Shown here: positions 4,634 through 33,270 of the stretch, piece by piece
Layout of the letters: each line of letters begins with the position of its first letter
Position numbering within the stretch: position 1 is the stretch's first letter
Assembly (NCBI RefSeq): GCF_988243305.1
Contig: NZ_OZ547136.1
Length of the DNA stretch: 64,000 nt
Direction: 5' to 3' (one strand)
Position numbers and translations under genes: made by a program
Notes under the pieces: generated by a model
What the model was told of the DNA's origin: nothing
The model's input: only the letters and a program-made list of their open reading frames with translations
The model's database searches: none

Positions 4634-4640
<7 letters not shown>

Positions 4641-5245: not shown

Positions 5246-5286
5246 GTTGCGGGGTAAGCGGATGCGATGTTGTCGTCGCATCCGGC

Positions 5287-5330
5287 AAAAAAAACGGGCA
5301 AGGTGTCACCACCCTGCCCATTTTCTTTAA
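5287..5330. terminator. bidirectional rho-independent terminator between convergent hisI and wzzB
   Basis: GC hairpin gggcaaggtgtcaccaccctgccc (about 5296-5319) flanked by an A-run upstream and a T-run downstream, so it is hairpin plus U-tract on either strand. Confidence 0.7.
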
Positions 5331-5341
5331 AACCGAAAAGA

Positions 5342-6319: not shown

Positions 6320-6464
6320 CATTACCCTAACTGACGGAAATTTCCAAGTCCGCATAGTTTAGCGATAATCCCCGTGAATGCTATAGGATAAGCGATAAAA
6401 ATAATGAATTATTGCGGAGGTAACAAAAGACAATCAGGGCGTAAATAGCCCTGATAACAAGATG

Positions 6465-7640
<1,176 letters not shown>

Positions 7641-7820
7641 TCAGAATTAACTTAACTGTGAATCATGATGTTTTTAGCATCCTGATAAGAGCTAAAAGTT
7701 TTAACGCTACGTTGTTCGATGGTCAACGCAACGAAAAACAATTCAGATTTTCTTTATAAGAATAGCTGATATTTATTAAGTTAATATTAAGCAGTGAAAT
7801 TTAGTCTATAAGATAATTGG

Positions 7821-7852
7821 CAAAAAAAAGCCCGGTGCAATATACGCCGGGC
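7821..7852 (-). terminator. rho-independent terminator downstream of gnd
   Basis: inverted repeat gcccggtg...cgccgggc followed on the minus strand by an 8-nt T-run. Confidence 0.7.
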
Positions 7853-7879
7853 CTCAATTTTATTGTTGGTTAAATCAGA

Positions 7880-9286
7880 TTAATCCAGCCATTCAGTATG
7901 GAACACACCTTCTTTATCAATGCGCTTATAAGTATGCGCACCGAAATAGTCACGCTGTGCCTGGATCAGGTTCGCAGGCAGAACAGCGGCACGGTAGCTA
8001 TCGTAATAGGCAACCGCAGCAGCGAAGGTCGGAACCGGGATACCGTTCTGTACTGCATAAGCAACGACATCACGCAGCGCCTGCTGGTAGTCATCGGCAA
8101 TTTGCTTGAAGTACGGAGCCAGCAGCAGGTTAGCGATCTGCGGATTTTCGGCATAAGCATCGGTGATTTTCTGCAAGAACTGCGCACGAATGATGCAACC
8201 AGCACGGAAAATCTTCGCGATTTCGCCGTAGTTCAGATCCCAGTTGTACTCTTCAGACGCTGCGCGCAGCTGAGAGAAACCCTGAGCGTAAGAAACGATT
8301 TTGCCCAGATACAGAGCACGACGAACTTTTTCGATGAACTCACCTTTGTCGCCAGCTGGCTGCGCTTGCGGGCCAGAGAGAACTTTAGATGCGGCAACAC
8401 GCTGCTCTTTCAGAGAAGAGATATAACGTGCAAACACAGACTCGGTAATCAGCGACAGCGGTTCTCCGAGATCAAGCGCGCTCTGGCTGGTCCATTTACC
8501 GGTACCTTTGTTAGCCGCTTCATCCAGGATCACATCAACCAGGTAGTTACCGTCTTCATCTTTTTTGGTGAAGATGTCTTTGGTGATGTCGATCAGGTAA
8601 CTACTCAGTTCACCGTTATTCCACTCGGTAAAGGTCTGTGCCAGTTCTTCGTTAGAGAGATTCAGGCCGCCTTTCAGGAGAGAATAGGCTTCAGCAATCA
8701 GTTGCATATCACCGTATTCAATACCGTTGTGAACCATCTTCACATAGTGACCCGCGCCATCAGCACCAATATAGGTAACGCACGGTTCGCCATCTTCAGC
8801 AACGGCGGCGATTTTGGTCAGGATCGGAGCAACCAGTTCATAGGCTTCTTTCTGCCCACCAGGCATGATGGAAGGCCCTTTCAGCGCCCCCTCTTCACCG
8901 CCGGAAACACCGGTACCGATGAAGTTAAAACCTTCGGCAGAAAGCTCACGGTTACGACGAATGGTGTCCTGGAAGAAGGTGTTACCACCATCAATGATGA
9001 TGTCACCTTTATCGAGGTATGGCTTGAGAGAATCAATAGCAGCATCCGTGCCTGCACCTGCTTTCACCATTAACAGGATGCGACGAGGCGTTTCCAGAGA
9101 TTCAACGAACTCTTTCACCGTATAGTAAGGAACCAGTTTCTTGCCTGGATTTTCGGCAATCACTTCTTCCGTCTTCTCACGGGAGCGGTTGAAAATAGAG
9201 ACGGTATAACCACGGCTTTCGATGTTGAGCGCAAGGTTGCGCCCCATCACTGCCATACCGACGACGCCGATCTGTTGCTTTGACAT
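7880..9286 (-). CDS. gnd: 6-phosphogluconate dehydrogenase, decarboxylating
   Basis: 468 aa ORF, N-terminal [16 protein letters not shown]-binding motif. Confidence 0.95.
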
Positions 9287-9448
9287 TGTTTACTCCTGTC
9301 AGGGGTGGTCACCGCCGAGTGTGCGGCTTAAATGTGGTATAGATGTTAACTCACTCATAGAGATGGTGAATAGCATTACCTTTGCGATACCACACTGAAT
9401 ATCTCATCTTTTCCGTCTTTTAAAACCTATTTATATGAATTTACTCAA

Positions 9449-10819
9449 TTACTTATTCAGTAACTCAAGGATAAGTTTTGTCTTTTCTTCCATCAGCGGC
9501 ACATCACCGCGCGATTCCACATTCAGGCGCACCACCGGTTCGGTGTTGGAGGAGCGCAGGTTAAAGCGCCAGTCGGCAAAGGTCATGCTGATGCCATCGG
9601 TACGATCCACCGCCAGCGCCTCGCGGCTAAAGTGCTGTTCGACGCGGTTAATCGCCTCAACGGGTTGCGCCAGTTTGCTGTTGATCTCACCGCTTGCCGG
9701 AAACGCTGCCATCCGGTCGCGCACCAGTTCGCCCAGCGTTTTTCCTTTCAGGCACACCAGTTCGGCTACCAGCAGCCACGGGATCATGCCGCTGTCGCAG
9801 TAAGCGAAATCACGGAAGTAATGGTGAGCGCTCATTTCGCCACCATAGATGGCGTCTTCCTTGCGCATACGTTCTTTAATAAAGGCGTGTCCGGTTTTCG
9901 ACATCACCGGAGTGCCGCCCGCGGCGGTCACCACATCAACGGTATTCCAGGAGAGACGTGGATCGTGGATGATCTTCGCGCCGGGATTTTTTTCGAGGAA
10001 CGCTTCTGCCAGCAGGCCGACAATGTAATAGCCCTCGATAAACTGCCCTTTTTCGTCAAACAGGAAGCAGCGGTCAAAATCGCCATCAAAGGCAATGCCC
10101 ATATCCGCTCCGTGTTTGATGACCGCATTGCGGGTGTCGTCGCGACATTCCGGCAGCAGCGGATTAGGAATACCGTTGGGGAAATTGCCGTCCGGCGTGT
10201 TGTGTACTTTGATTAATTCCACCGGTGCGCCGAGGGCTTTAAATCGGGCTTCAATGGCGTCCACCACCGGACCCGCCGCGCCGTTCCCGGAGTTAATCAC
10301 CAGCTTGAGCGACGTGAGGTTTTTGACGTTGATATAACCGAACAGGTGCTCAACGTAAGCGTCACGCAGATTGATTTGTTGATAGCGACCGCGTTTGGTT
10401 TCATCGACGGGAGGAAAGTCGTTGGCTTCTGCCAGACGCTGGACATCGCGTAGTCCGGTATCACCGCTGATCGGGCGAGCCCCCTCGCGAACCAGCTTCA
10501 TGCCGTTATAATCCATCGGATTATGGCTGGCGGTGACTTCAATGCCGCCATCCACGCCGAGATGGAACGTGGCGAAATAGATTTCTTCGGTGCCGGACAT
10601 GCCAATATCCAGCACATCGACGCCCGCATCCTGTAAACCTTTCGCCAGCGCCAGTTTTAAGGTTTCGCTGGTGAGGCGGGCATCACCGCCTAACACAATG
10701 GTTTTCGGTTTGAGAAATTCGCCATAGGCGCGACCAATGCGCCACGCAATATCTTCATTCAGTTCTTCGCCTAATTTCCCGCGAATATCATAGGCTTTAA
10801 AGCAGGTTAATTTTTTCAT
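9449..10819 (-). CDS. manB: phosphomannomutase, O-antigen cluster copy
   Basis: 456 aa ORF; nearly identical over most of its length to the colanic acid copy at 31900-33270; diverges only in the last ~15 codons. Confidence 0.9.
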
Positions 10820-10843
10820 ATAAAAACCTTACCAATAATAAAA

Positions 10844-11602
10844 TTATTTATGCGCAAATAATTGCATTAGTTTTGATATTTTTCTGATAATGATAGCAAT
10901 TTTCCAATTTACATTATGGTTTTTCATAACTTCTACAATTTCCTTTGTACTTGATATCGCGTTATCAATTCTGGTACTTTCCCCACCCAATCTCATCTTT
11001 ACAAATACTTGAGGAACATAAATAACTTTAATATCATCACGTTTCAAAATCCTGACCATCTGATCATAGTCTGCAGCAATCCTATAGGATAAATCAAAAT
11101 ATCCATCGTCTTTATATAATTCCCTCCTCATATAGAAAGATGGATGCGGTGGTGCCCAGCCTAATGATAGCTTAGAACGTTTAAAAGGACCACTACGCCA
11201 GTATCGTTTGATTATATCAATTTGGTTTTTTTCGAAAAAAACCAAATCACCGTATACAACATCCGCTTTTGTCTCATGGAAACGGCTTACAATAGTTTCA
11301 ATAATATCAGGTCTTGCTAAAAGGTCATCAGAATGAACGAATCCAATAATATCTCCCGTAGATAAATTTATACCTTTATTTAAAGCATCATAGATACCGT
11401 TATCGCTTTCTGATAGACATTTGGTTACTCTTGTTGATACTTCGTTAATTAGTTTTAACGTATTATCTGTAGAACCACCATCAATAATTATATACTCTAT
11501 ATCTTTATAGGTTTGCAACTCTATTGACTCTAAAGTATCCCTTAAAGTCTTTTCACTATTATAAGTCACTGTAATAATACTGACTTTCATTTTAACATCC
11601 AA
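10844..11602 (-). CDS. glycosyltransferase, family 2-like
   Basis: 252 aa ORF; N-terminal SIITVTYN...DGGSTD motif typical of GT-A fold; AT-rich; start may be the internal Met at MKVSIIT. Confidence 0.75.
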   Translation of the reverse strand: MDVKMKVSIITVTYNSEKTLRDTLESIELQTYKDIEYIIIDGGSTDNTLKLINEVSTRVTKCLSESDNGIYDALNKGINLSTGDIIGFVHSDDLLARPDIIETIVSRFHETKADVVYGDLVFFEKNQIDIIKRYWRSGPFKRSKLSLGWAPPHPSFYMRRELYKDDGYFDLSYRIAADYDQMVRILKRDDIKVIYVPQVFVKMRLGGESTRIDNAISSTKEIVEVMKNHNVNWKIAIIIRKISKLMQLFAHK

Positions 11603-11673
11603 TAATAATCATAATTAAATAACGTCAGTACCGCATTACGAATAATAATGTTGCATTAGTATCCAGCATCATT

Positions 11674-13074
11674 TTAGATTCTAACAACATCATCTTCATC
11701 CAAGTAAACACCTGAACGTACCTCAATAATCTCCAAAGGGATCTTTCCTGGATTCTCAATAAAATGAGGTACACCTATTGGTATATAAGTTGATTCATTT
11801 TCAGAAACAAGAAATATTTCATCTTCATAATGGACTTTTGCTGTTCCAGAAACAACAATCCAATGCTCAGTACGATGGTAATGAATCTGTTTAGCAGTTT
11901 TATGTCCAGGATGAATAACGACATGTTTAACCTCAAATCGAGATCCTTCCGCTATAGAGTCATGACTGCCCCATGGCCTAAATATTTCACGATGCTGCAG
12001 ATATTCCGTACGGTTATTAACTTTAAGTTTTTCTACAATATTTTTTACCTGTTGAACTTTATCTTTATGCGCAACGAGAATAGCATCTTTAGTTTCAACA
12101 ACTACTAAATCTTTAACTCCTACTACACCAATTAATCTATGTTGTGAGTAAAGATAACTGTCAGAAGAATCATGAATTAATACATCTCCTCTAATTGCAT
12201 TTCCACTTTTATCTTTTCTGCTAATTTCCCATAATGCAGACCAAGAACCAACATCGCTCCAGTGGGCATTTAATGGAACTACCACAGCCTCTGTTGTTTT
12301 CTCCATAACAGCGTAATCAATGGATTCTTCAGGGCAACAACTAAATGAGTCATTATCTATACGGATAAAATCAAGATCTTGTGTAGAGGACTTCAATGCT
12401 TGTTGGCATATTTTTAGTATGTCTGGTCTAAATTTATTCAACTCATCAATAAACACAGAAGCCCTAAACATGAATATTCCACTATTCCAAAGATAATCTC
12501 CATCTTCAAGATATTTTTTGGCCACATCTAGCTCAGGCTTTTCAACAAAAGCAGAAACTTTAAAACCATATTCATTTAAATTTTCTCCGGTTTTTATATA
12601 GCCATATCCAGTTTCGGGTTTGGTTGGCACAATACCAAAAGTTACCAGCTTACCTTCCTCTGCAAATTCTTTTGCAGCCAATATTGACGATATAAAGCGC
12701 TTTTGGTCTTGTATTTCATGATCGGCTGCTAGTACAAGCAGTATTGGATCCTCACCTGATGAAATCGCTTTAAGAGCAGCAAGCGCAACTGCGGGGGCAG
12801 TATTACGACCTACCGGCTCTAGTAAAATGCCACTATTCGCTAAATTTACATTACGCATCTGTTCTGCAACGATAAAACGATGAACTTCATTACAAATAAC
12901 CAGAGCAGGACGATGTTCAACCCCTTCAAGCCTTCTTAAGGTCTCTTGTAGCATAGTCAAACGACTAGTTAACGACAGGAATTGCTTCGGATATAGTGTT
13001 CGAGAAAGTGGCCACAATCTAGTTCCAGAACCACCGGCCATTACAACAGGAAGTAGCATATAAATAACCTTCAC
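11674..13074 (-). CDS. manC: mannose-1-phosphate guanylyltransferase, O-antigen cluster copy
   Basis: 466 aa ORF; [19 protein letters not shown] nucleotidyltransferase motif; paralog of the colanic acid copy but divergent and AT-rich. Confidence 0.88.
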   Translation of the reverse strand: MKVIYMLLPVVMAGGSGTRLWPLSRTLYPKQFLSLTSRLTMLQETLRRLEGVEHRPALVICNEVHRFIVAEQMRNVNLANSGILLEPVGRNTAPAVALAALKAISSGEDPILLVLAADHEIQDQKRFISSILAAKEFAEEGKLVTFGIVPTKPETGYGYIKTGENLNEYGFKVSAFVEKPELDVAKKYLEDGDYLWNSGIFMFRASVFIDELNKFRPDILKICQQALKSSTQDLDFIRIDNDSFSCCPEESIDYAVMEKTTEAVVVPLNAHWSDVGSWSALWEISRKDKSGNAIRGDVLIHDSSDSYLYSQHRLIGVVGVKDLVVVETKDAILVAHKDKVQQVKNIVEKLKVNNRTEYLQHREIFRPWGSHDSIAEGSRFEVKHVVIHPGHKTAKQIHYHRTEHWIVVSGTAKVHYEDEIFLVSENESTYIPIGVPHFIENPGKIPLEIIEVRSGVYLDEDDVVRI

Positions 13075-13526
13075 TTAAAATAATTTTTTGTGTACTGATG
13101 AACTGAGGAATTAGCTAACAATTCGGCTATATCGAACCAATTGTAAGTACTATGTTGTAGTGTTGGATAGTTAATTTGATGTGGCATCAAACTAATCTCA
13201 TATCCGTGTACGACATAATGAGTTGAAAAACAAGTCCCAGAAAAATTGTCGCTGTAGAAATGTTCATAAATCCCAAGAAATTTTGCTTCATTAATGCTAA
13301 TTTGAACACCCAATTCTTCAAAAGTAACTCTTTTGAATGCGTTCTCGAAAGACTCATCTTTAAGAATCCGTCCCCCCGGCACAAACCAATAATTTTGTGC
13401 TGGACGATTAAGGCGCTGACCAAGCAGCGCCTTACCATCTTCGTTTCTTATAATAAGGTCTATCGAGATTAGTGGAGTATGTTCAACTATTGATTTAAAT
13501 AACTCTGTTTCTAATCTCTTGTTCAA
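13071..13526 (-). CDS. gmm: GDP-mannose mannosyl hydrolase (Nudix)
   Basis: 151 aa ORF, Nudix-like, between fcl and manC as in the colanic acid cluster. Confidence 0.8.
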   Translation of the reverse strand: MNKRLETELFKSIVEHTPLISIDLIIRNEDGKALLGQRLNRPAQNYWFVPGGRILKDESFENAFKRVTFEELGVQISINEAKFLGIYEHFYSDNFSGTCFSTHYVVHGYEISLMPHQINYPTLQHSTYNWFDIAELLANSSVHQYTKNYFK

Positions 13527-13528
13527 TA

Positions 13529-14494
13529 TTAACTCCTAAATGAGTCAAGATTATTTATAAACCATTTATATGTTAATTCTAGTCCTTGTTTTAAATTATA
13601 ACGATATTTCCAGCCCAAATTCTCAAGGCGTGTAACATCCATAAGTTTACGAGGCGAACCATCTGGTTTTGTTATATCAAAAACAATTTTTCCATCATAG
13701 CCAACAACTAAAGCCATTGTTTCTGCCATTTCACGTATGGAACAATCAACACCAGTACCTACGTTAATATGAGATAACATTGGTTGAGTATTTTTTTTAT
13801 AAATTTCATCATCAAGCTCCATCACATATACTGATGCAGCTGCCATATCATCAACATATAAAAACTCGCGTTTTGGAGTTCCCGTTCCCCAGACAACCAC
13901 TTCATTTAAACCAAGTTCCTTTGCTTCATGAAAACGCCGCATAAGCGCTGGAATTACATGTGAGTTATTGGGATGAAAATTATCATTCATACCATATAAG
14001 TTAGTAGGCATTACACTGCGATAATCACATCCATATTGGCGATTATAAGATTCACATAGCTTTATACCTGCTATTTTGGAAATAGCATAAGGCTCATTAG
14101 TAGGCTCAAGAGTTCCCGTCAAAAGTGCAGATTCTTTCATTGGCTGTTCTGCAAACTTTGGATAGATACAACTTGACCCTAAGAATAATAGTTTCTTTAT
14201 GCCCGCTTTATAAGATGAGTGAATAATATTGCTTTCAATGAGAAGGTTCTGATAAATAAATTCAGCTGGAAAAGTGTTATTAGCATGAATTCCTCCTACT
14301 TTTGCTGCTGCAAGGTAAACCTGATCTATTCTCTCTTGCTCAAAAAAACATTCAACATCCTTTTGAACTGTCAAATCGAGTTCTTTGTGAGTTTTGACAA
14401 TTAACTCAACATCATTACGTGCTAATAATTGACGACAAATAGCAGAACCAACCATCCCACGATGTCCAGCCACAAAAATTCGCTTCTTGGTCAT
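13529..14494 (-). CDS. fcl: GDP-L-fucose synthase
   Basis: 321 aa ORF; N-terminus [13 protein letters not shown] matches the colanic acid Fcl paralog. Confidence 0.88.
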
Positions 14495-14497
14495 ACT

Positions 14498-15619
14498 TTA
14501 ACGCTCCAAAGAGACTGCCACGTCAAAACCATGGCTTTTAAGAAGTGCATGCTGTTTAGCTTTTTCTAAATCACTAGCCACCATTTCTGCACACATTTCT
14601 TCAACTGTAATCTCTGGCTCCCAACCCAAGACATTTTTTGCTTTTGTTGGATCACCAAGAAGAGTTTCAACTTCTGCTGGTCGAAAATAACGAGGGTCAA
14701 CGCGAACAATAACATCACCAATATTAACACCAACGGCGCAATCTGATGTTTTATTTACAACCATTGCAACCTCATCAACACCAGTACCGGAAAACTCAAG
14801 TTCAAGTCCAACTTCTTTAGCAGACATACGGACAAATTCACGTACAGATATTTGTTTGCCAGTGGCAATAACAAAGTCTTCTGGCTGGTCTTGTTGAAGC
14901 ATCATCCATTGCATACGAACATAATCTTTCGCATGCCCCCAATCACGTAAAGAATCCATGTTGCCAAGATATAAGCATTTTTCTATTCCCTGCGAAATAT
15001 TAGCTATAGCACGTGTGATTTTACGTGTTACAAACGTTTCCCCACGACGTGGGGATTCATGATTGAACAAAATACCGTTGCATGCATACATTCCATAAGA
15101 CTCACGATAGTTTACAGTGATCCAATATGCATACAGTTTAGCTACGGCATAAGGTGAACGAGGATAGAACGGCGTTGCCTCTTTTTGTGGAACTTCCTGA
15201 ACTAATCCATACAATTCAGAGGTTGACGCCTGATAAAATCGGGTTTTTTTTTCTAATCCCAAAAAACGAATAGCTTCCAATAATCGTAAAGTACCTATAG
15301 CATCAACATCAGCTGTATATTCTGGGGATTCGAAGGAAACAGCTACGTGACTCATTGCTCCGAGGTTGTAAACTTCATCAGGTTGAACTTCAGATAATAT
15401 ACGAGTCAAATTAGAAGTATCTGTTAAGTCACCATAATGAAGGTGTAATTTTAAATTAATATTATGGGGATCTTGGTATATATGGTCAATACGTCCAGTA
15501 TTAAAAATAGAAGAACGTCGTTTTATTCCATGAACCTCGTAACCTTTATTTAGTAGAAACTCTGCCAAATATGAACCATCTTGACCAGTAATGCCAGTAA
15601 TTAATGCTTTCTTTGTCAT
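14498..15619 (-). CDS. gmd: GDP-mannose 4,6-dehydratase
   Basis: 373 aa ORF; [20 protein letters not shown]-terminus, highly similar protein to the colanic acid Gmd, but AT-rich DNA. Confidence 0.9.
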
Positions 15620-15629
15620 AAAATTATTC

Positions 15630-16664
15630 CTACAGTAGTTTCTTGTAAATATCGATAGTTTTGTCAGTACATTTTTTCCAAGAAAAACGTTGTGCTTGAG
15701 ATAAACCTTTCTTAATAATTTGATTTCGATTTCTATTTATAAATGATATACCATCAATAAGGTTGCTTATACTTAACTCATCCATCAAATAACCGGCGTC
15801 ACCTGCAACCTCTGGTATTGAGGAGTGATTATACGCAATGAATGGGCATCCTGCCCTCATTGCTTCTAAAAGAGGAATACCAAATCCTTCATAACTTGAC
15901 GGATAAATAAGAGAATGAGCTTGATTAAATTTTAGATTCAACTCTTGCTCAGTTAAATATGGATAATGAATATATCGATATGGTATATATTTATCAAGTA
16001 AAAATTTCTCAGCCTTTCCCAAAGGGCCTCCACCTACAATATATAGTTTGAACCCCTCTAATTTGTTTATTGCTTCAACTGCAAGTTGAAAGTTTTTATA
16101 TGCTTTTCTCGAACCAATAAAAAGCATGAAATTATCATCATCGTTATAATTAACGTTTTTTAATTCATAAAAATTATCAGACACCCCATTGTGAATGATT
16201 TCGATTTTACTTTCAGGTACTGGACAATACCTCAACAAATCATTGGCAGTATTTTCTGAAATGCAAATTATTTTATCACTGTTTTTTATAGCATTGTACT
16301 TCTGATGACAATGAACGTATTTACGTAAACCTGACATATATTTTTCATATGTAAAGTCATGTACTGTTGTTATGTTTTTATTTTTTTTGCCCTTACTAAA
16401 TCTATAATAACTAGAATGTAATAGAGAGTTTTCAGGAATATCAACAGCTCGATACCTTTCAAGAAAGCGAGGATATAGATTAATATAACGTCCAGGTTGT
16501 CGCACATCTTCACTTATAAATTGACAGCCTGTATTCTCATAGTTTAATATCGTATATTCAATATTTGTGGCTTTTATCGCTTTTATTATTTGATTATAAT
16601 AAACAGAAATGCCACCGTATGACTGGAGATTATATATAATACCATCCAAATATAACATAGGCAC
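15630..16664 (-). CDS. glycosyltransferase, GT-B fold (family 1/4-like)
   Basis: 344 aa ORF; C-terminal [19 protein letters not shown] motif typical of GT4 retaining transferases. Confidence 0.75.
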
Positions 16665-16673
16665 CTTTTATAT

Positions 16674-17687
16674 TTAATTGTATCCATCAGGATTTAGCGT
16701 ATGCCATTTCCACGCAGAAGAAAGCATTTCGGTCAAATCTCGCCTAGCCTTCCAGTCCAGTTCTTTTTCAGCTTTGGAAACATCCGCCCAACATTCTGCA
16801 ACATCGCCGCTTCGGTTAGGGCCAAAACTATAATTAATATTTTTCCCAATAATTGATTGAAATGTTTTTATTACTTCTAATACAGAATATCCTCTACCCG
16901 TACCTAAGTTATATATTTTATAATTTCCTCCTTTGCCAAACATTTTAAATGCTGAAATATGCCCCTCAGCTAAATCATTTACATGAATATAATCTCTGAT
17001 ACCAGTCCCATCAGGCGTTGGATAGTCATGACCATAAATAGTAAGCGCAGGTAATTTACCTAAAGCAACATTCATCATATATGGAACTAAGTTAGCAGGA
17101 GTACCTCTGGGATTTTCACCTATTAACCCAGACTCATGCGCCCCCACTGGATTAAAATATCGCAAAATAATCACATCTAATTTAGGGTTTGCCAGAGAAG
17201 CATCTTTTAATATAACCTCGGAGTAATATTTACTGGTCCCGTATGGATTCGTTGTTTCACCTATACGACATTTTTCATTGATAGGTATCGTTTCTGGAAG
17301 ACCGTACACCGTAGCAGATGAGCTAAAGATAATTTTATTTACATGAAAGATCTTCATTAACTCTAACAAATTTAAAAGCCCAACAATATTATTCATATAA
17401 TAACGTATAGGACTTTGAACTGATTCTGAGACAGACTTAAGGCCTGCAAAATGTAATACTTTAGAGAATGTGTGATTCGTGAATATAGTCTTTAATTCTT
17501 TTTTGTCCAATAAATCTACCTTATATGCTCTGATTTTCTTACCACTAAGCTTTGAAATGACTTTGATGATATCTTCTGTAGAATTAGAAAAATTATCTAT
17601 GATGACAACGTCTTCATTCTGCTCCAATAATGACAGAACAGTATGGGACCCAATATATCCAGCTCCACCCGTAACTAATATTGTCAT
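16674..17687 (-). CDS. NAD-dependent sugar-nucleotide 4-epimerase (GalE family)
   Basis: 337 aa ORF; VTGGAGYIGSH Rossmann motif and YGTSK catalytic motif; substrate not determinable from sequence. Confidence 0.8.
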   Translation of the reverse strand: MTILVTGGAGYIGSHTVLSLLEQNEDVVIIDNFSNSTEDIIKVISKLSGKKIRAYKVDLLDKKELKTIFTNHTFSKVLHFAGLKSVSESVQSPIRYYMNNIVGLLNLLELMKIFHVNKIIFSSSATVYGLPETIPINEKCRIGETTNPYGTSKYYSEVILKDASLANPKLDVIILRYFNPVGAHESGLIGENPRGTPANLVPYMMNVALGKLPALTIYGHDYPTPDGTGIRDYIHVNDLAEGHISAFKMFGKGGNYKIYNLGTGRGYSVLEVIKTFQSIIGKNINYSFGPNRSGDVAECWADVSKAEKELDWKARRDLTEMLSSAWKWHTLNPDGYN

Positions 17688-17696
17688 AAAAACACC

Positions 17697-19019
17697 TTAT
17701 TTGAATTTAAAAAAAACTATTTGCATCGATAATCTCAAGCATATGTATGCCATAAAGAACATACCTAATTCAAATATCATAGAAGAAAACTCTGAGCGTT
17801 GGAAATTGATAGATTGGGAAAGAAAAACAAGATAAAGAAAATAGTTGCTCCCAATTAACCTTTCCATTATATATGAATAACCACATAAAATGGCAGGAAA
17901 TATAATTACACCATAATAATTATAATTAATAAAAGCTTCTGTAAAAGGAGTAAATGCATATCCCATCATAAACTCTTGACTTGGCAAATAAACTTCCTTT
18001 GCAAATTGAATAGCTAATGTGTCTGGCTTTAATCCCATAAATAATTCTTTTGGTATAAAGTTTACAATGAACTGAAGATAGGATATACCAAAAAATTGAG
18101 TCTGATAATGTATCGAAGAATAATATTGAAGTGTAGATATAGGATAAATAAATTCACCCAAAGCATTCAATAATCTTATGCTTGATTCGACATTATAATC
18201 TGAACGATATATCCCAAAAAGTATAATCGTTGATACAAATAGAATACTGAACAACGCTACTTTTAATGGTATCTTAAATTTAGCTTTATAAAGTGATAGC
18301 AATACAGCCATAATAAAAGATAAAGCAATTTCTCGTCTTGAACCTACCAGCATTAAAGTATAAAAATATAAAAGCACAGGTATGCTGTATATTACGAAAC
18401 TATAATTTGTGAGACTTTTTTTTACTATCTTTAAATCAAGTAAAATCCAAAAATAAGCAATAACCACATATTTCAGATACCATCCACTTTGACTTACCGA
18501 ATTAATTAACTCTAGGCGAGTACTTTCGCCCAAAGCATTCAGAGAAAGATTTCTTGATTGATATAGAAAAAATAATGATATTAACCATGCTATGCATGAT
18601 GGAATAAATAGATTATAGTTATTGTCATAGTTATATTGTTTGTTTAAAAGAAATATATTGATACCGTGAGGCCTAATCAAACTAATCGATGCAACTATAC
18701 ACCAAACAGCAACACAATATAAGAATGAAGTGTTGATTATATTATTTTCAACATTAAATACATTAACACCAAAAAAATAATACAACAAAAAAGACACAAA
18801 AAAATAAAAAGGCGATAATATTATAAATATTCCATCAAACCATACCCACATTCGATTATATACAAAAAAAAGAATTGCAATTGTAAATATTACAGATAAA
18901 AACCAAATTAGGATAGCATCAATTTCAACTTTGACAGAAGTGCTCAATACAGCAATCATTATCAACCCAATAAAGCCATAAAATTGAGCCAATACCAGTT
19001 TGTATTGTTTATAAATCAT
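17697..19019 (-). CDS. wzy: putative O-antigen polymerase
   Basis: 440 aa, very hydrophobic multi-spanning ORF, very AT-rich, within O-antigen cluster; assignment by topology and context only. Confidence 0.6.
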   Translation of the reverse strand: MIYKQYKLVLAQFYGFIGLIMIAVLSTSVKVEIDAILIWFLSVIFTIAILFFVYNRMWVWFDGIFIILSPFYFFVSFLLYYFFGVNVFNVENNIINTSFLYCVAVWCIVASISLIRPHGINIFLLNKQYNYDNNYNLFIPSCIAWLISLFFLYQSRNLSLNALGESTRLELINSVSQSGWYLKYVVIAYFWILLDLKIVKKSLTNYSFVIYSIPVLLYFYTLMLVGSRREIALSFIMAVLLSLYKAKFKIPLKVALFSILFVSTIILFGIYRSDYNVESSIRLLNALGEFIYPISTLQYYSSIHYQTQFFGISYLQFIVNFIPKELFMGLKPDTLAIQFAKEVYLPSQEFMMGYAFTPFTEAFINYNYYGVIIFPAILCGYSYIMERLIGSNYFLYLVFLSQSINFQRSEFSSMIFELGMFFMAYICLRLSMQIVFFKFK

Positions 19020-19854
19020 ATTTTAACAATCCCGTCCAGAAACCGATTAATCTGTACATATATAATTTTTTTTGTTTTTTTAAAACGATACCAAAAAATG
19101 ATTTTACTGTGATCCTGAAAATTTCCAATAGTAATAAATAACGAGATTTCACTAAATACTTCTTTATCACGACACCATATCCAACTGCATATTTTCTGTA
19201 TTTTTCTGGTATCCCTTCACAATATAAATCATTATCGTGATAAACTCCAAATATAGGTTGAAAACATACTCTAAACCCAAGAGATTTCAGCCGAAAAAAT
19301 AACTCCGTTTCTTCGGATCCACCGAATAAAGTACCAACACCTAACCTTTCATCAAAATATATATTATCGAGTTTATGAGTAAAAATAAAAGTACCCACAC
19401 TTAGTGACGATTTAATTATTTGATTATAACCCATTTCCTTTTTAGTTTTAGGATAAACTCTATTGGCATAAGATTTCATTGTTTGAAAATCTAATACAGG
19501 AACTGAAAGAACGGTTTCTTTTTTGATATTTGATTGAATCACCTTCTCAAAAAAATCAGGAGCATAAAAAGCATCATCATCACAGAACCCAATAACATTA
19601 CCACTGCATAGTTTAAGCCCTTGATTACGAGCAGTTGAAAGTGGTACTTTATTTGATTTAACCAACTTGTATTTTATATTTTTTGCGTGTTTTAAAAATA
19701 ATTGCTCAATTATGATATCATCAGTCTGATCAATAAATATAATTTCTAGGTTTTTGTACGTACTGCTAGCTATGCTATTTAGCAGTCGTTCAATTTCTTT
19801 ATCCCTTCCACCTTGAGTTGTGCCTATCAAACTAATTTTATAAAAGTTATTCAT
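19009..19854 (-). CDS. putative glycosyltransferase
   Basis: 281 aa ORF in O-antigen cluster, GT2-like N-terminal region, overlaps wzy by 11 nt. Confidence 0.6.
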   Translation of the reverse strand: MNNFYKISLIGTTQGGRDKEIERLLNSIASSTYKNLEIIFIDQTDDIIIEQLFLKHAKNIKYKLVKSNKVPLSTARNQGLKLCSGNVIGFCDDDAFYAPDFFEKVIQSNIKKETVLSVPVLDFQTMKSYANRVYPKTKKEMGYNQIIKSSLSVGTFIFTHKLDNIYFDERLGVGTLFGGSEETELFFRLKSLGFRVCFQPIFGVYHDNDLYCEGIPEKYRKYAVGYGVVIKKYLVKSRYLLLLEIFRITVKSFFGIVLKKQKKLYMYRLIGFWTGLLKYDL

Positions 19855-19855
19855 A

Positions 19856-20776
19856 TTAATATCCTTTTTTTAAGATTGAATTAATCTTTATTTTACAATA
19901 ATAAGCAAATTTTCTAAGAAAAACACCATTTATATATTTAATCTTTACTCCTAACTTAGAAAAAATAATAAAATACACCTTAAAATAATAACAAATAGCA
20001 TTAAGAAAACGATGACTTGATTGCGGAAACAAAACCATCCCTAGCTCATCTTTATCGAGAATAATCCCCTGTTTTTTTAAATTACCAATGGCAATAGATA
20101 TGTGAATATCTGCTTGTATATGCTTTTTTATATTCGATATTTGATTTCCGTGATTTCGATAATAAAGCAAGGGTATATTTATATTACAGAATTTTCCGTA
20201 GTTTGCTAATCTACTCCAAAACTCATAATCTTCAGCATATTGGTAGCGTGGCTTATAATATAGGCATTCTTTTTTTATAATGCTGCTTCTCATCATTACA
20301 GTTGGATGAGCAAAACAACTGCCCACCAACAATCCTATTTTACAGGCTTCGTCTGAGTTAGGCATTTTTATAATTTTTCCGCTATTAACAGCTGACTCAA
20401 AAACTTTGATATTAGTTCCACAACACGCTATTTTTTGATCTGCATCCATTATTTCAACTTGTAATCTCAACCTTTCTCTGTGAGCAATATCATCAGCATC
20501 CATTCTAGCAATATACACTCCCGTAGCCATGTCTAATAATTCATTTAAAGTAGCTACTATCCCTTTATTTTCTCTATGCTTAATTTTGAATATCGCGGGA
20601 TATTTATTTTTATATTCATCAAGTATCTTTTGTGTACCATCCTGCGAGCCATCATTGATGATGATAATTTCAAATATTTTATATGTTTGTTCCAATATAC
20701 TGTCAATGCATGCGCCTAAGTATTTTTCAGCATTATATACCGGTATTATAACGGATACTTTGTTTTTATTAATCAT
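19856..20776 (-). CDS. glycosyltransferase, family 2
   Basis: 306 aa ORF; VSVIIPVYNAEKYL...INDGSQD motif. Confidence 0.78.
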   Translation of the reverse strand: MINKNKVSVIIPVYNAEKYLGACIDSILEQTYKIFEIIIINDGSQDGTQKILDEYKNKYPAIFKIKHRENKGIVATLNELLDMATGVYIARMDADDIAHRERLRLQVEIMDADQKIACCGTNIKVFESAVNSGKIIKMPNSDEACKIGLLVGSCFAHPTVMMRSSIIKKECLYYKPRYQYAEDYEFWSRLANYGKFCNINIPLLYYRNHGNQISNIKKHIQADIHISIAIGNLKKQGIILDKDELGMVLFPQSSHRFLNAICYYFKVYFIIFSKLGVKIKYINGVFLRKFAYYCKIKINSILKKGY

Positions 20777-20782
20777 AATATA

Positions 20783-22054
20783 TCATACTTTGTTTTTATT
20801 AAGCAGATAACAGATCGTTACTATTAAGGAGAACATATATAATGCTTGAGATATTATATACGCTTTAAAAACATAAGAAATTTGAGCATTTTCGACGTAG
20901 CATAACGAATACTTACTTAATATACAATATACAGACCATTGTAACACTTCTAACACTATATATTCTTTTACGAATGCTTTGCTAATCAGCAAATAACCAA
21001 GCACCCATGCAATTATCTTAAAAAAATCTCCAATTAGTTGATAAACTATAACATCAACAATAGGAACGAACTCGTGTGTAAATAGAATATTTACTATCAA
21101 ACCGCGAAATGTATACATCAAGACTGAAGATATACAAACTAACGGAACCAAATACAAATAACAAACTTTTATTTCATTAAGCAATTCTGAACGGTTAGAT
21201 GCACTTGAAAACCTTGGAAAGAAATATACCCCCAATGTAGTCGTAATTAACATCAAATAGACTGAACTTATTCTATTAACAGCATCCCACAACCCAGCAT
21301 ACTCAATATTTATTGATGTTATGATTTCATTTCTCACATATAACGTACTAACTGGCACTAATATAGCTGAAGTGACTGTCATTAAAGAAAAAATTATGAT
21401 CCGTTTTAATATTGAAATATCAATTCGATTGCAATTATTAACATAGTATTCTCTTAAATATTTTTTTGAGTAAAAAAAAGTCACAAAAAACAATATAGCT
21501 TGATTTGAAACTACAGCAATCAATGCTCCTCTCATACCAAAAGAGATTGTCAATATAAAGGCGTATATTGCAGATATTAAACTCGATATGATATTAATCC
21601 ATATATAATTTTTAATAAATGACAATCCATTTAACATAGAAAGAATTATATTATTCCATGCATATAAAATAACACTCCCTCCCAAGAAATAAATTGCGAT
21701 GCTTACTTCATCATTAGAATTGAAAAATTGTTCGATAATTATATTTTTAAAGATAATTATGATAACAGCGGTTATAAATCCCATTATAGTAGACAAATAA
21801 ATTGCATTAATCCAAAAACTCCAGATTTTTTCCTTATTACTATTCTTATACTCTGACGTATACTTAACAATACTCGTTGAAATAGCTTGTGATGGCGCAA
21901 CCATAGCTATATTAAGGATATTTTGGATTTGGCCAATAAGTGCATATCCAGACGTACCTAAATATATTGCGAATACTTTATTAAGTCCAAGTAGAGTTGC
22001 TATTTTGACAAATACAGAAAGGCCATTAAGAATAAAGACATTATATACTTTCAC
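20783..22054 (-). CDS. wzx: putative O-antigen flippase
   Basis: 423 aa multi-spanning membrane ORF, first gene after the JUMPstart element. Confidence 0.65.
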   Translation of the reverse strand: MKVYNVFILNGLSVFVKIATLLGLNKVFAIYLGTSGYALIGQIQNILNIAMVAPSQAISTSIVKYTSEYKNSNKEKIWSFWINAIYLSTIMGFITAVIIIIFKNIIIEQFFNSNDEVSIAIYFLGGSVILYAWNNIILSMLNGLSFIKNYIWINIISSLISAIYAFILTISFGMRGALIAVVSNQAILFFVTFFYSKKYLREYYVNNCNRIDISILKRIIIFSLMTVTSAILVPVSTLYVRNEIITSINIEYAGLWDAVNRISSVYLMLITTTLGVYFFPRFSSASNRSELLNEIKVCYLYLVPLVCISSVLMYTFRGLIVNILFTHEFVPIVDVIVYQLIGDFFKIIAWVLGYLLISKAFVKEYIVLEVLQWSVYCILSKYSLCYVENAQISYVFKAYIISQALYMFSLIVTICYLLNKNKV

Positions 22055-22116
22055 AGTTCACCTAACATATTAAGTAGGTTATGATAACAAAACTCATATT
22101 TAATTATACCATAAAT

Positions 22117-22160
22117 ATAAACCACGCTACCGCCCCTGGCTATACAGCTACCAGAGCACT
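22117..22160 (-). promoter_or_regulatory. JUMPstart element with ops site upstream of the O-antigen operon
   Basis: plus-strand cacgctaccgcc at 22123-22134 is the reverse complement of the ops sequence GGCGGTAGCGTG; same motif context recurs upstream of wza. Confidence 0.8.
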
Positions 22161-22407
22161 GCGTGTGTGTCTACAATGTAACGAGCGTTTCATGCTCGCA
22201 ATAAACAAAAAACCAAAAGCTAAATTATCTTACTAATCAGCTCTGAAAACAAGGAAATGTGTAAAAAAAGTCCTATTGCTGACTTGTTATTATCCCGAAT
22301 ATTTATAAATCAATAATAGCAGGAAGACTCGCAACAAGTTACTTTGCCTGCTAATCTTCACAACTATTACAGTCTTTTCGCATCTGTTGCATCCGATTCG
22401 ATTTTCA

Positions 22408-23304
22408 TTATTCCCTTAACAGCTTCTCAATCCCTTTACGGAACTTCGCCCCTTCTTTTAGGTTACGCAGTCCATACTTCACAAACGCTTGCATATAACC
22501 CATTTTTTTACCGCAGTCGTAGCTGTCACCGGTCATCAGCATGGCATCAACAGACTGTTTTTTCGCCAGTTCGGCAATAGCATCAGTCAGTTGGATACGT
22601 CCCCATGCACCTGGCTGAGTGCGTTCCAGTTCCGGCCAAATATCGGCAGAAAGCACATAACGGCCCACGGCCATGATGTCTGAGTCCAGCGTCTGCGGCT
22701 GATCCGGTTTTTCGATAAATTCAACAATGCGGCTGACTTTACCTTCGCGATCCAGCGGTTCTTTGGTCTGGATGACGGAGTATTCAGAGAGGTCACCCGG
22801 CATACGTTTTGCCAGCACCTGGCTACGGCCCGTTTCATTGAAGCGTGCAATCATGGCAGCAAGGTTGTAGCGTAGCGGGTCGGCGCTGGCGTCGTCGATC
22901 ACAACGTCTGGCAGCACCACGACAAATGGATTGTCACCAATGGCGGGTCGTGCACACAAAATGGAATGACCTAAACCTAAAGGTTCGCCCTGACGCACGT
23001 TCATAATAGTCACGCCCGGCGGGCAGATAGATTGCACTTCCGCCAGTAGTTGACGCTTCACGCGCTGCTCAAGGAGAGATTCTAATTCATAAGAGGTGTC
23101 GAAGTGGTTTTCGACCGCGTTCTTGGACGCGTGAGTTACCAGGAGGATTTCTTTGATCCCTGCAGCCACAATCTCGTCAACAATGTACTGAATCATTGGC
23201 TTGTCGACGATCGGTAGCATCTCTTTGGGAATCGCCTTAGTGGCAGGCAACATATGCATCCCAAGACCCGCTACCGGTATAACTGCTTTTAAATTCGTCA
23301 TCAT
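22408..23304 (-). CDS. galF: UTP-glucose-1-phosphate uridylyltransferase-like regulatory subunit
   Basis: 298 aa ORF, nucleotidyltransferase N-terminus, conserved position upstream of O-antigen cluster. Confidence 0.9.
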
Positions 23305-23542
23305 TTTCCTACCTCTAAGTGGCTGATAGTGCGTAAATTATGCCATAGGTTAGCCAAACGGTATGGCTATATACCAAAGCTTAGTTCCGCATAACTTTGA
23401 TTAAACCTTACGATAACACTACACACCATCAGCATCTGGGTTACTCGGATTACTCGGAAATCCACATACTGATAATTTAATCAGTACCTCTTTCCGAATA
23501 ATCGTAGTCCAACCTGGTCCTTTTTTCTCTGACTCGTCTGCA

Positions 23543-24538
23543 TTACTCAGAAACAAACGTTATGTCGTCTTTTTTGGCATGAACGAATTCATACTGCAGA
23601 GTTCGATCCAGACCTTGCGACAGCGTATACGGTGCCACAAAACCTGAAGAATGCACTTTCGTTGCGTCAAACTGTGTTGTTGCGCAGAATTTTTTCACGC
23701 GCACTGAGCTGACAGCGTATTTTTTGCCCGTAATTTTGCTCAGGATATCAAAACAATATCCACCCAGCATTCCTAGTGGGTAAGGCAAGTGCATAGAAGG
23801 GATCTTTTTGTTCAGGCTTTGTTCAACTTCAGCAACCAACTGGTTCATGTTCAGGTCTGGCTTATCAACGTAGTTATAAACCTCATAACCTGCGGCAACA
23901 TTCTTCAGTTTGTACTTGATAAACTCAACAATGTTTCCAACATAAGCCATGGACTTATAGTTAGTTCCTGCACCCACCATCATAAACTTGCCGCCAGCGA
24001 TCTGTTTCAGCAAGTTATAGACGTTACCGCGGTTGCGTTCACCGAAGATAACGGTAGGACGGATGATGGTTAATGAACGTTCTGTTGGTGCTTTGTTATA
24101 CCATTCACGCAGCACTTCCTCTGCCTGCCACTTACTTTTGCCGTAGTGGTTGAAAGGGTCGTGTGGATGGTTTTCGTCAGGGTTATGTTTGTTCAAACCA
24201 TAAACAGCAACGGAACTGGTAAAGATGATATTTTTAACGCCATTTTTTTCCATGGCCGCCAGCACATTGCGGGTACCCTGAACGTTGACATCATAATAGA
24301 GAGAAGTAGGGCTGACGTCATCGCGGTGTTCCGCTGCCAGTAGTACAACAGTGTCAAAACCAACTAATGCCTGGTCGAGTGCCTGTTGATCGCGAACATC
24401 GCCAATCTGTGTGATTTCTGGATAAAAGTGGCTCTGCTGTTTGTCCAGGTTCTTGATATTAAAGTCAGCAATTGCCGTTTCAAGTAGTCGGGTTCCTACG
24501 AATCCGGAAGCTCCTATGAGCAAAACGTTATCGTTCAT
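23543..24538 (-). CDS. gne: UDP-N-acetylglucosamine 4-epimerase-like protein
   Basis: 331 aa ORF; N-terminal LLIGASGFVG Rossmann motif; lies between wcaM and galF as recalled for gne in some E. coli lineages. Confidence 0.75.
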   Translation of the reverse strand: MNDNVLLIGASGFVGTRLLETAIADFNIKNLDKQQSHFYPEITQIGDVRDQQALDQALVGFDTVVLLAAEHRDDVSPTSLYYDVNVQGTRNVLAAMEKNGVKNIIFTSSVAVYGLNKHNPDENHPHDPFNHYGKSKWQAEEVLREWYNKAPTERSLTIIRPTVIFGERNRGNVYNLLKQIAGGKFMMVGAGTNYKSMAYVGNIVEFIKYKLKNVAAGYEVYNYVDKPDLNMNQLVAEVEQSLNKKIPSMHLPYPLGMLGGYCFDILSKITGKKYAVSSVRVKKFCATTQFDATKVHSSGFVAPYTLSQGLDRTLQYEFVHAKKDDITFVSE

Positions 24539-24695
24539 AAATCACTTTAGTCTGGTTGTTACGTAAGAAACACAAGATAAAGATGAGTACCTTCCCTGAG
24601 TAGTCAATGCTGCCCAGCCCCAGCTTTAACAGTTAGTGTGAGGATTATAATCTTTTAGAACATTATATCCAGTAAGTTTATGAATGGTCGCAAAT

Positions 24696-31899: not shown

Positions 31900-33270
31900 T
31901 TACTCATTCAGCAACGTCAGCAGAGTTCGCGTTCGCGCTTCCATCAGCGGCACATCACCGCGCGATTCCACATTCAACCGCACCACCGGTTCGGTGTTGG
32001 AGGAGCGCAGGTTAAAGCGCCAGTCGGCAAAGGTCATGCTGATGCCATCGGTGCGATCCACCGCCAGCGCCTCGCGGCTAAAATGCTGTTCGACGCGGTT
32101 AATCGCCTCAACGGGTTGTGACAGTTTGCTGTTGATCTCACCGCTTGCCGGGAATGCCGCCATCCGGTCGCGCACCAGTTCGCCCAGCGTTTTTCCTTTC
32201 AGGCACACCAGTTCGGCGACCAGCAGCCACGGGATCATGCCGCTGTCGCAGTAAGCGAAATCACGGAAGTAATGGTGGGCGCTCATTTCGCCACCGTAGA
32301 TGGCGTCTTCCTTGCGCATACGTTCTTTAATAAAGGCGTGTCCGTTTTTCGACATCACCGGCGTGCCGCCAGCGGCAGTCACCACATCAACGGTATTCCA
32401 GGAGAGACGTGGATCGTGGATGATCTTCGCGCCGGGATTTTTTTCGAGGAACGCTTCTGCCAGCAGGCCGACAATGTAGTAGCCTTCGATAAACTGCCCT
32501 TTTTCGTTAAACAGGAAGCAGCGGTCAAAATCGCCATCAAAGGCAATGCCCATATCCGCGCCGTGTTTGATGACCGCATTGCGGGTGTCGTCGCGGCATT
32601 CAGGCAGCAGCGGGTTAGGAATACCGTTGGGGAAATTGCCGTCCGGTGTGTTGTGTACTTTGATTAATTCCACCGGCGCGCCGAGGGCTTTAAAGCGGGC
32701 TTCGATGGCGTCAACTACCGGACCCGCTGCGCCGTTCCCGGAGTTGATCACCAGCTTGAGCGGCGTGAGATTTTTGACATTGATATAACCGAACAGGTGA
32801 TCAACGTAAGCGTCACGCAGGTTGATTTGCTGATAGCGACCGCGTTTGGTTTCATCGACGAGAGGAAAGTTGTTGGCTTCAGCCAGACGCTGGATGTCGC
32901 GCAGTCCGGTATCACCGCTGATCGGGCGAGCCCCTTCGCGCACCAGCTTCATGCCGTTGTAATCCATCGGGTTATGGCTGGCGGTAACTTCAATGCCGCC
33001 ATCCACACCGAGATGGAACGTGGCGAAATAAATCTCTTCGGTGCCGGACATGCCAATATCCAGCACGTCGACGCCCGCATCCTGTAAACCTTTCGCCAGC
33101 GCCAGTTTTAAGGTTTCGCTGGTGAGGCGGACATCACCGCCTAACACAATGGTTTTCGGTTTGAGAAATTCGCCATAAGCGCGACCAATGCGCCAGGCAA
33201 TATCTTCATTCAGTTCTTCGCCTAATTTTCCACGAATATCATAGGCTTTAAAGCAGGTTAATTTTTTCAT
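31900..33270 (-). CDS. manB: phosphomannomutase, colanic acid cluster copy
   Basis: ORF 31900-33318; start set at [10 protein letters not shown] (cat at 33268-33270), giving 456 aa. Confidence 0.92.

Follow-up and report, generated by a model that had tools for sequence, protein, structure and literature searches.

The AT-rich core of an Escherichia coli O125 O-antigen gene cluster, its modular structure and the putative conversion of manB by cpsG

A window of 64,000 nucleotides (nt) from contig NZ_OZ547136.1 (NCBI RefSeq assembly GCF_988243305.1) was analysed, and all positions given here refer to it unless another locus is named. It contains a strongly AT-rich stretch at 10820-22060, which is the serogroup-specific variable core of an Escherichia coli O125 O-antigen gene cluster of the Wzx/Wzy pathway. 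The region 15630-22054 matches just 7 of 5426 complete E. coli genomes, at 99.8-99.9% identity, and in all seven of them wzx and wzy are annotated as members of the O125 family. The matching genomes include strain NCTC8623 and one strain labelled O125ac:K+:H10, while none is 100% identical over the serogroup-specific part. Because the clusters of the two subgroups, O125ab and O125ac, are themselves 98-99.9% identical (PMC4732683), the locus is assigned to O125 without a subgroup.

The cluster occupies the galF-gnd interval, with the colanic-acid and his operons as neighbours. Its genes, listed in Table 1, were called with Pfam and NCBIfam and by comparison with a virtually identical locus annotated in RefSeq. 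The O125 repeat unit is built from Fuc, Man, Gal and GalNAc (PMC9680116), and the sugar genes present fit this composition: three GT2 and one GT4 glycosyltransferases, gmd, fcl, gmm, manC, manB and a galE-type epimerase gene, taken as gne, making UDP-GalNAc (PMC9680116). The published O125 cluster comprises four glycosyltransferases, wetD, wetE, wdaF and wdaG, and two epimerases, gne and gnu (PMC9680116); the glycosyltransferase names were assigned here from the gene order and families given in that work. The gnu gene, which takes part in O125 synthesis (PMC9680116) and is needed because the repeat unit starts with GalNAc, is located between galF and wcaM, outside the AT-rich block. Since manB also lies outside the AT-rich DNA, the functional cluster is larger than the compositional island.

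Profile matches of the two membrane proteins were weak, Wzx scoring 144 bits with the NCBIfam WzxE-type flippase (below its cut-off) and Wzy 33.5 bits with TIGR04370 (cut-off 40). Their identification rests on 99.8-99.9% identity to annotated O125 genes, and their functions are predicted. The E. coli O125 (O125ab/O125ac) cluster of Iguchi et al. 2015, DebRoy et al. 2016 and Liu et al. 2020, as far as the discussion in PMC9680116 describes it, occupies the corresponding galF-gnd site and agrees in gene content (wzx, wetD, wetE, wzy, gne, wdaF, gmd, fcl, gmm, manC, wdaG and manB, with gnu upstream of galF), with no difference of substance from the cluster in the window.

Table 1. Features of the O125 O-antigen locus. 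G+C is given as a fraction and GC3 is the G+C at third codon positions; "colanic" refers to the paralogue in the colanic-acid cluster of the same window.
Feature	Position	Strand	Evidence and composition
gnd	7880..9286	-	RefSeq annotation of identical locus; G+C 0.506
manB	9449..10819	-	Mostly cpsG-like; G+C 0.543
Putative unconverted 3' tail of manB	9449..9486	-	38 nt, 26% G+C; encoded C-terminus unlike that of cpsG
Putative converted body of manB	9487..10819	-	95.7% identical to cpsG of the window, about 81% to the Citrobacter copies; G+C 0.551
wdaG, GT2 glycosyltransferase	10844..11590	-	Pfam PF00535, E = 5e-29; G+C 0.319; first AT-rich gene on the gnd side
manC, mannose-1-phosphate guanylyltransferase	11674..13059	-	Pfam PF00483 and PF01050; G+C 0.373, GC3 0.231 (colanic cpsB 0.627; 58% protein identity)
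gmm, GDP-mannose mannosyl hydrolase (NUDIX family)	13071..13526	-	Pfam PF00293 and RefSeq annotation; G+C 0.353, GC3 0.303 (colanic 0.634; 47% protein identity)
fcl, GDP-L-fucose synthase	13529..14494	-	Pfam PF01370 and RefSeq annotation; G+C 0.355, GC3 0.233 (colanic 0.699; 71% protein identity)
gmd, GDP-mannose 4,6-dehydratase	14498..15619	-	Pfam PF16363, E = 7e-155; G+C 0.387, GC3 0.243 (colanic 0.634; 83% protein and 69% DNA identity)
Recombination junction, approximate	15360..15420		Within the 5' end of gmd
wdaF, GT4 glycosyltransferase	15630..16658	-	Pfam PF00534 and PF13439; start codon per RefSeq; G+C 0.309
gne, galE-type 4-epimerase	16674..17687	-	TIGR01179 (galE), 430 bits, above cut-off; G+C 0.354
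wzy, predicted O-antigen polymerase	17697..19019	-	RefSeq 'O125 family O-antigen polymerase'; G+C 0.276, minimum of the block
wetE, GT2 glycosyltransferase	19009..19854	-	Pfam PF00535, E = 1e-17; G+C 0.294; 11-nt overlap with wzy
wetD, GT2 glycosyltransferase	19856..20776	-	Pfam PF00535, E = 3e-38; G+C 0.299
wzx, predicted O-unit flippase	20783..22054	-	RefSeq 'O125 family O-antigen flippase'; G+C 0.285, GC3 0.248
galF-wzx intergenic leader/promoter region	22055..22407	-	35.4% G+C; right-hand edge of low-GC segment
JUMPstart element	22123..22161	-	Rfam RF01707, 52.2 bits (gathering score 35)
galF	22408..23304	-	TIGR01105 above cut-off; G+C 0.509
gnu, Z3206-type Und-PP-GlcNAc 4-epimerase	23543..24538	-	RefSeq product name; G+C 0.447
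cpsG, colanic-acid cluster	31900..33270	-	Presumed template for manB conversion

The G+C content is 0.326 over 10820-22060 and 0.516 in the remainder of the window, and no stretch of 11,241 bp to the right of the block falls below 0.501. A likelihood segmentation with two changepoints, performed on 7880-26000, delimited a low-GC segment from 10784 to 22412 (log-likelihood ratio 488). The support intervals (2-lnL) are 10742-10808 for the left edge and 22121-22511 for the right one, where the low G+C runs beyond wzx, across the 353-nt wzx-galF spacer, to galF. An AT-rich block between gnd/manB and galF had been proposed in a preliminary description of this DNA made by eye, and these values bear it out, with the left edge correct to within about 40 nt. 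The heading of that description, manC through wzx, was less exact, since the first gene of the block is the GT2 gene at 10844, from which its text does begin. The composition typical of E. coli that it ascribed to the flanks holds for gnd, manB and galF (flank GC3 about 0.63), whereas the genes one step further out are intermediate, with G+C of 0.437 in ugd, 0.456 in wzz, 0.447 in gnu and 0.476 in wcaM.

All 11 open reading frames (ORFs) of the block are on the minus strand, and their G+C ranges from 0.276 to 0.387 and their GC3 from 0.220 to 0.303. Relative to the his and wca genes of the window, the comparison suggested in the preliminary description, the codon adaptation index is 0.37-0.43 within the block and 0.60-0.72 outside; the value for manB, 0.709, is the same as that for cpsG. 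Rare codons number 5.6-12.8 per 100 within the block versus about 1-2 outside. The long A/T runs noted by eye in wzy and wzx were recovered by counting, A/T-only runs of at least 8 nt occurring about 23 times per kb in these two genes versus 0-2.2 in gnd, manB and galF. Pooled GC3 is uniform across the block (0.244 from wdaG through gmd, 0.241 from wdaF through wzx, versus 0.63 in the flanks), while overall G+C is 0.359 in the first part and 0.301 in the second. This gap lies wholly at codon positions 1 and 2, because membrane and transferase proteins are rich in Phe, Ile, Asn and Lys.

Some neighbouring segments also deviate in composition. The 248-nt ugd-gnd spacer has 32% G+C, and the gnd-distal flank as a whole (5342-7879: wzz, ugd and the spacer) is compositionally atypical. 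A second, milder dip is present in the colanic-acid cluster, where wcaF, wcaE and wcaD (38816-41354) have 0.44-0.48 G+C versus 0.53-0.56 in their neighbours. The polymerase gene wcaD is the lowest of these (0.440), echoing the position of polymerase genes as the most AT-rich ones in polysaccharide clusters.

The window provides an internal control for the compositional bias, since it holds colanic-acid copies of five genes related to those of the cluster, namely gmd, fcl, gmm, manC and manB. The first four are 51-69% identical to their colanic-acid copies at the DNA level and 47-83% at the protein level, and synonymous sites in these pairs are saturated (proportion of synonymous differences, pS, 0.85-0.95). 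The colanic-acid copies have GC3 of 0.63-0.70, so that protein function is not the cause of the bias.

The fifth pair behaves differently. Over the full gene manB is 94.6% identical in DNA to cpsG, with a synonymous divergence (dS) of 0.19. The similarity begins at the ATG and stops 38 nt short of the stop codon, and the two leaders preceding it are not related; directly ahead of cpsG, at 33275-33324 on the minus strand, is an algC RNA motif (Rfam RF02929, 77 bits) that is absent upstream of manB. A four-way comparison was performed with the Citrobacter genome CP073007.1, which carries a syntenic O125-like cluster and a colanic-acid cluster of its own. Over nt 1-1333, manB and cpsG are 95.7% identical within E. 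coli and 95.9% identical within Citrobacter, versus 81-82% between the genera. The informative sites group the four copies by genus in 182 cases and by locus in 11, nine of which fall in the last 38 nt (nt 1334-1371), leaving two in the body of the gene. The manB of the Citrobacter O-antigen cluster ends in the same type of tail as that of O125. Homogenisation of the gmd, fcl, gmm or manC paralogue pairs was seen in neither genus.

Because the copies group by genus at 182 sites and by locus at 11, these sequences strongly support the view that in each genus the resident cpsG has repeatedly homogenised the O-antigen copy, manB, up to a conserved tract end, and the preliminary description, in which manB had been homogenised against the colanic-acid copy, anticipated this result. 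The segment 9449-9486 would then be a remnant of the original AT-rich manB of the cluster, and the sharp left edge of the AT-rich block would have been created by the conversion of manB and would not be an insertion end point. The tail and the manB-gnd spacer are present in 434 of the 5426 E. coli genomes, belonging to several serogroups and including CFT073, the BL21/B lineage and PCN033, so the hybrid manB is not specific to O125. In a strain whose cluster is unrelated and contains rml genes, positions 2-10819 of the window recur at 98.1% identity, and the match breaks off exactly at the start codon of manB.

Replacement of the O-antigen manB by colanic-acid cpsG has been described in O157, as the accounts of Samuel et al. 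2004 (as cited in PMC3158064) and Iguchi et al. 2011 indicate. Long-term evolution of E. coli B has provided experimental cases of recombination between manB and cpsG, which deletes O-antigen genes (PMC4173774), and a 96% identical pair is also behind the O14 deletion (PMC7685785). The pairs of O157 and E. coli B are about 95-96% identical within a genome, the gnd-side copy having host-like G+C (PMC3158064, PMC4173774), and the same is found in O125. Beyond the O157 case, the O125 locus adds the tract end at nt 1333 with its 38-nt tail, the distribution over 434 genomes and the parallel pattern in Citrobacter; the comparison covers these later accounts, the reports of Samuel et al. 2004 and Jensen and Reeves 2001 themselves lying outside it. 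Three naRNA4/REP-type repeats (RF02564) are located at 28718-28885 and 33411-33481, in the wcaK-wzxC and cpsB-cpsG spacers of the window. In O157 strains the same spacers hold REP elements and recombination junctions (PMC3158064).

The AT-rich block itself is a mosaic of at least two modules. An O11 strain shares 6368-15622 of the window at 98.7% identity (BLAST), and similarity to its locus starts again at 22353 on the galF side. Sliding comparison of the O125 and O11 gmd genes gave identities of 0.83-0.84 in the first 200 nt and 0.95-1.00 beyond, which places a junction inside this gene, with DNA shared with O11 at 95-100% toward gnd and O125-specific DNA toward galF. The wdaG protein is identical in the two serogroups, while the O11 counterparts of WdaF and Gne have 51% and that of Wzx 22% protein identity. 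Seventy-eight genomes, among them O11 and O43 strains, carry the gnd-proximal module at 90% identity or more (O43 at about 90%), and 140 further ones carry it at about 78%, while the distal module is limited to the seven O125 genomes.

Two further readings were considered and rejected. Polarisation of changes in the O11-shared module with O43 as outgroup gave 35 AT>GC and 15 GC>AT changes, as if amelioration were under way. Of these 50 changes 28 fall in gmd, most of them within 260 nt of its 5' end, a stretch over which the three alleles differ by 16-27%, and the counts outside gmd are 12 and 10. Because the changes cluster at the recombination junction, the signal is attributed to that junction and not to point mutation. 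Regarding a possible conversion of gmd by its colanic-acid copy, the sites differing between O125 and O11 match the colanic-acid sequence in O125 in 12 cases, in O11 in 20 and in neither in 14, which gives no clear signal.

Upstream of wzx, the JUMPstart element contains an exact ops motif, GGCGGTAG, at 22134-22127. JUMPstart/ops is the loading site of RfaH at the head of O-antigen operons. Pattern scans for promoters and terminators gave counts no different from those in shuffled sequence in this AT-rich DNA. A second JUMPstart (57 bits; 47898-47936, minus strand) precedes wza, where the colanic-acid operon begins.

The block is not a classical integrative island, because no integrase, insertion sequence (IS), tRNA gene or edge repeat accompanies it. 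No integrase or recombinase was found among the ORFs of the window with Pfam and NCBIfam, all ORFs of the block being sugar or polysaccharide genes; the 64 kb contain no tRNA genes; no direct repeats spanning both block edges were found; and no IS elements are present in this copy of the block. It shares with classical genomic and pathogenicity islands the atypical G+C and codon usage and the sharp edges, whereas the integrase, tRNA target and flanking direct repeats of such islands are all missing. Judging from the sequence, exchange at the galF-gnd site would proceed by homologous recombination in the conserved flanks.

Several related loci carry disrupted genes. In C 236-04A, the strain labelled O125ac:K+:H10, the annotation places a transposase gene of the IS5-like element ISKpn26 between wzx and galF (13584-14564 of that locus), in the operon leader region, where it could affect O-antigen expression. 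In the O125 strain SWYH.B349aT wzx is frameshifted (12154-13424 of that locus), and in the O11 strain ES7 manC has an internal stop (16226-17611) and wzy is interrupted by IS1 (23364-25376 of that locus); rough variants are suggested in both cases. Elsewhere in the window, a lone G+C dip to 0.418 is present at 61001-62000, near a 153-aa ORF (61618-62079, plus strand), and a Sib antitoxin RNA (RF00113, 146 bits; 63708-63856, plus strand) indicates that an ibs/sib type I toxin-antitoxin locus lies close to the right end.

The closest relatives of ManC and Wzy were found in enteric bacteria. In a protein search, ManC was most similar to proteins of E. albertii and E. coli (83-84% identity), Citrobacter (79-80%) and Enterobacter (75-78%), followed beyond this Enterobacteriaceae gradient by Photobacterium, Grimontia, Yersinia and Aeromonas (66-68%). 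A donor search with ManC against one genome per species, a design that misses strain-variable clusters, gave at best 68% identity (Grimontia) among the matches listed, low-GC marine hosts such as Colwellia having ManC proteins only 55-58% identical. Wzy has nine relatives in 5.8 billion proteins, the nearest one in Citrobacter at 60% identity. No donor combining a matching native composition with close sequence was found in the collections searched, and its absence there is no proof that none exists.

The Citrobacter cluster of CP073007.1 has the gene order galF, wzx, GT2, GT2, wzy, GT4, gmd, fcl, gmm, manC, split GT2, manB and gnd. Its proteins are 43-87% identical to those of O125, and its synonymous sites are saturated like those of the flanking wca genes (pS 0.71-0.79). 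Its GC3 is 0.20-0.34, versus 0.52-0.62 in its flanks. Two short ORFs (16683-17426 of that locus) take the place of an intact wdaG-like GT2 gene, and there is no galE-type gne, a 346-nt spacer with 27% G+C separating wzy from the GT4 gene (11333-11678 of that locus). From its gene content, the polysaccharide of this cluster is probably not identical to that of O125.

Similar compositions recur in loci with related gmd-manC cassettes in Citrobacter, Enterobacter, Yersinia and Photobacterium, where wzx, wzy and the transferase genes have 25-33% G+C and the O-unit genes lie below the sampled flanking genes. In the Photobacterium locus, GC3 of wzx, wzy and the glycosyltransferase genes is 0.12-0.21 versus 0.35-0.44 in the sampled flanking genes. 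A cassette consisting of a GT4 gene, gmd, fcl, gmm, manC, a 248-aa GT2 and a phosphomannomutase recurs across Enterobacteriaceae and Vibrionaceae (Citrobacter, Enterobacter, Photobacterium). Its phosphomannomutase, of 473-474 aa, is about 22% identical to the cpsG-type ManB and represents a different enzyme lineage with the same job.

The explanation favoured here, with a probability of roughly 85%, is that the O125 core consists of at least two modules of an enteric gene pool exchanged at the galF-gnd site, and that its manB was converted by cpsG. The genes of the operon would belong to a pool of polysaccharide modules passed among Enterobacteriaceae, hence their composition unlike that of the chromosome, and the silent sites of this pool are AT-rich in each of the hosts compared. 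Homologous recombination in the conserved flanks would exchange the modules at the galF-gnd site. The gnd-proximal one, nearly unchanged relative to O11, would comprise wdaG, manC, gmm, fcl and most of gmd, and the O125-specific one would extend from the 5' end of gmd through wzx. Finally, the cluster's own manB would have been overwritten by gene conversion from the resident cpsG, from its start codon to nt 1333, making the left edge secondary. We infer that the low G+C reflects a gene pool of foreign composition rather than a recent import from one identifiable donor, and AT-richness looks like a long-standing property of this gene class in all the hosts examined. The preliminary description had the central block acquired from a low-GC donor. 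As an ultimate origin this standard reading is not contradicted, but a single block from a single donor does not agree with the mosaic structure, the enteric relatives of ManC and Wzy, the saturated yet AT-rich Citrobacter cluster and the absence of a matching donor from the collections searched.

Some points weigh against the favoured explanation. The name Citrobacter for CP073007.1 is that attached to a protein cluster and does not come from the record itself. The direction of single-nucleotide polymorphisms (SNPs) was taken from eight O125 sequences by a minor-allele rule, with a block sample of 23 variants only: 15 are GC>AT and 8 AT>GC, implying an equilibrium G+C of about 0.2 and rejecting an equilibrium of 0.5 (p = 0.0015), while the gne-to-wcaK flank has 134 and 57 such variants and an implied equilibrium of about 0.3. 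The existence of one RfaH-dependent minus-strand transcript, running from the JUMPstart/ops leader toward gnd, is deduced from sequence motifs and known operons. Furthermore, a long enteric residence in which local conditions favour AT and a series of imports from low-GC donors outside the sample would look alike in these data.

The first of these two possibilities leads to an alternative that can be held only tentatively and is on balance somewhat doubtful, in which the low G+C is a steady state held for very long in GC-richer enteric hosts, whatever its first origin. It could be an AT-biased mutational equilibrium at genes where GC-favouring forces are weak, or AT-richness and rare codons could be selected for low Wzx/Wzy expression, with H-NS silencing and RfaH anti-termination. 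This alternative is favoured by the SNP equilibria, block GC3 of 0.24 being near the mutational one, and by the JUMPstart/ops element; rare codons and low G+C have also been tied to low Wzy expression (PMC12004945), and the especially low G+C of wzx and wzy is said to need explanation (PMC3715488). The low GC3 of both the E. coli and the Citrobacter clusters, despite saturated synonymous divergence, and that of the Photobacterium genes relative to their flanks point the same way. However, Salmonella rml genes reach host G+C when recombining with resident alleles, which has been taken as arguing against a benefit of low G+C (PMC3715488), manB functions in the same operon at cpsG-like G+C, and the colanic-acid flippase gene wzxC, with a comparable job, has 54.5% G+C. 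The SNP sample is small and rare polymorphisms are AT-biased genome-wide, and independent imports from related low-GC donors may have reached both genera.

A single recent import, which would have brought the whole of 10820-22060 in one event from one low-GC donor too recently for drift to E. coli composition, is improbable. Atypical G+C in O-antigen clusters has classically been read in this way (PMC5359238, PMC3715488 section 26), and the uniform GC3 of the two modules and the sharp edges on both sides agree with a single import. The two halves differ in history, however, the proximal one being shared with O11 and O43 and the distal one confined to O125; ManC and Wzy have their nearest relatives in enteric bacteria; in the syntenic Citrobacter cluster the synonymous sites have fully turned over and yet GC3 is just as low; the O125-lineage variants show no drift toward 50% G+C; and the left edge would be due to manB conversion. 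Practically no credence is given to the last alternative, in which the low G+C comes from hydrophobic Ile/Phe/Lys/Asn-rich membrane proteins or from random fluctuation, because although F, Y, M, I, N and K make up 40-45% of residues in Wzx, Wzy and the glycosyltransferases versus 26-28% in Gnd, ManB and GalF, which explains the module difference at codon positions 1 and 2, the third codon positions are AT-rich in 11 of 11 genes, soluble enzymes included, the colanic-acid paralogues are not, and the log-likelihood ratio of the segmentation is 488.

Most features of this locus are already known from other O-antigen clusters, including the low-G+C core, the O125 cluster itself and the replacement of manB (PMC5359238, PMC3715488, PMC9680116, PMC4732683, PMC3158064). 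The galF-gnd region of E. coli O-antigen clusters has less than 40% G+C versus near 51% in the genome (PMC5359238), with a minimum of 28-37% in wzx, wzy and the glycosyltransferase genes and intermediate values in the man genes, which has been read as interspecies transfer (PMC3715488 section 26). The low-G+C O-antigen and rfb clusters of E. coli and Salmonella studied by Reeves and co-workers and Samuel et al. 2004 are modular, with sugar-pathway genes at one end, and O125 is alike. In such clusters divergence climbs toward the junction with the serogroup-specific region, and in O125 this is seen inside gmd. The O125 sugar-pathway genes, with 0.35-0.39 G+C, are somewhat more AT-rich than the 36-41% quoted for Salmonella manBC (PMC3715488). 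Only four details are mildly new: the 38-nt remnant of manB, concerted evolution running in parallel in another genus, the O11 junction internal to gmd and the Citrobacter sister cluster.

The main value of these results is a correct annotation, namely that the window carries the O125 O-antigen locus, and the compositional step marks the serogroup-determining DNA used in molecular serotyping. A G+C-based island caller would mis-draw the cluster, because manB and gnu lie outside the AT-rich DNA. The manB and cpsG genes form a 96% identical direct repeat about 21 kb apart, and such pairs recombine, deleting O-antigen genes, as in E. coli B and O14. The paired E. coli and Citrobacter clusters constitute a small natural test case for why O-antigen genes stay AT-rich.

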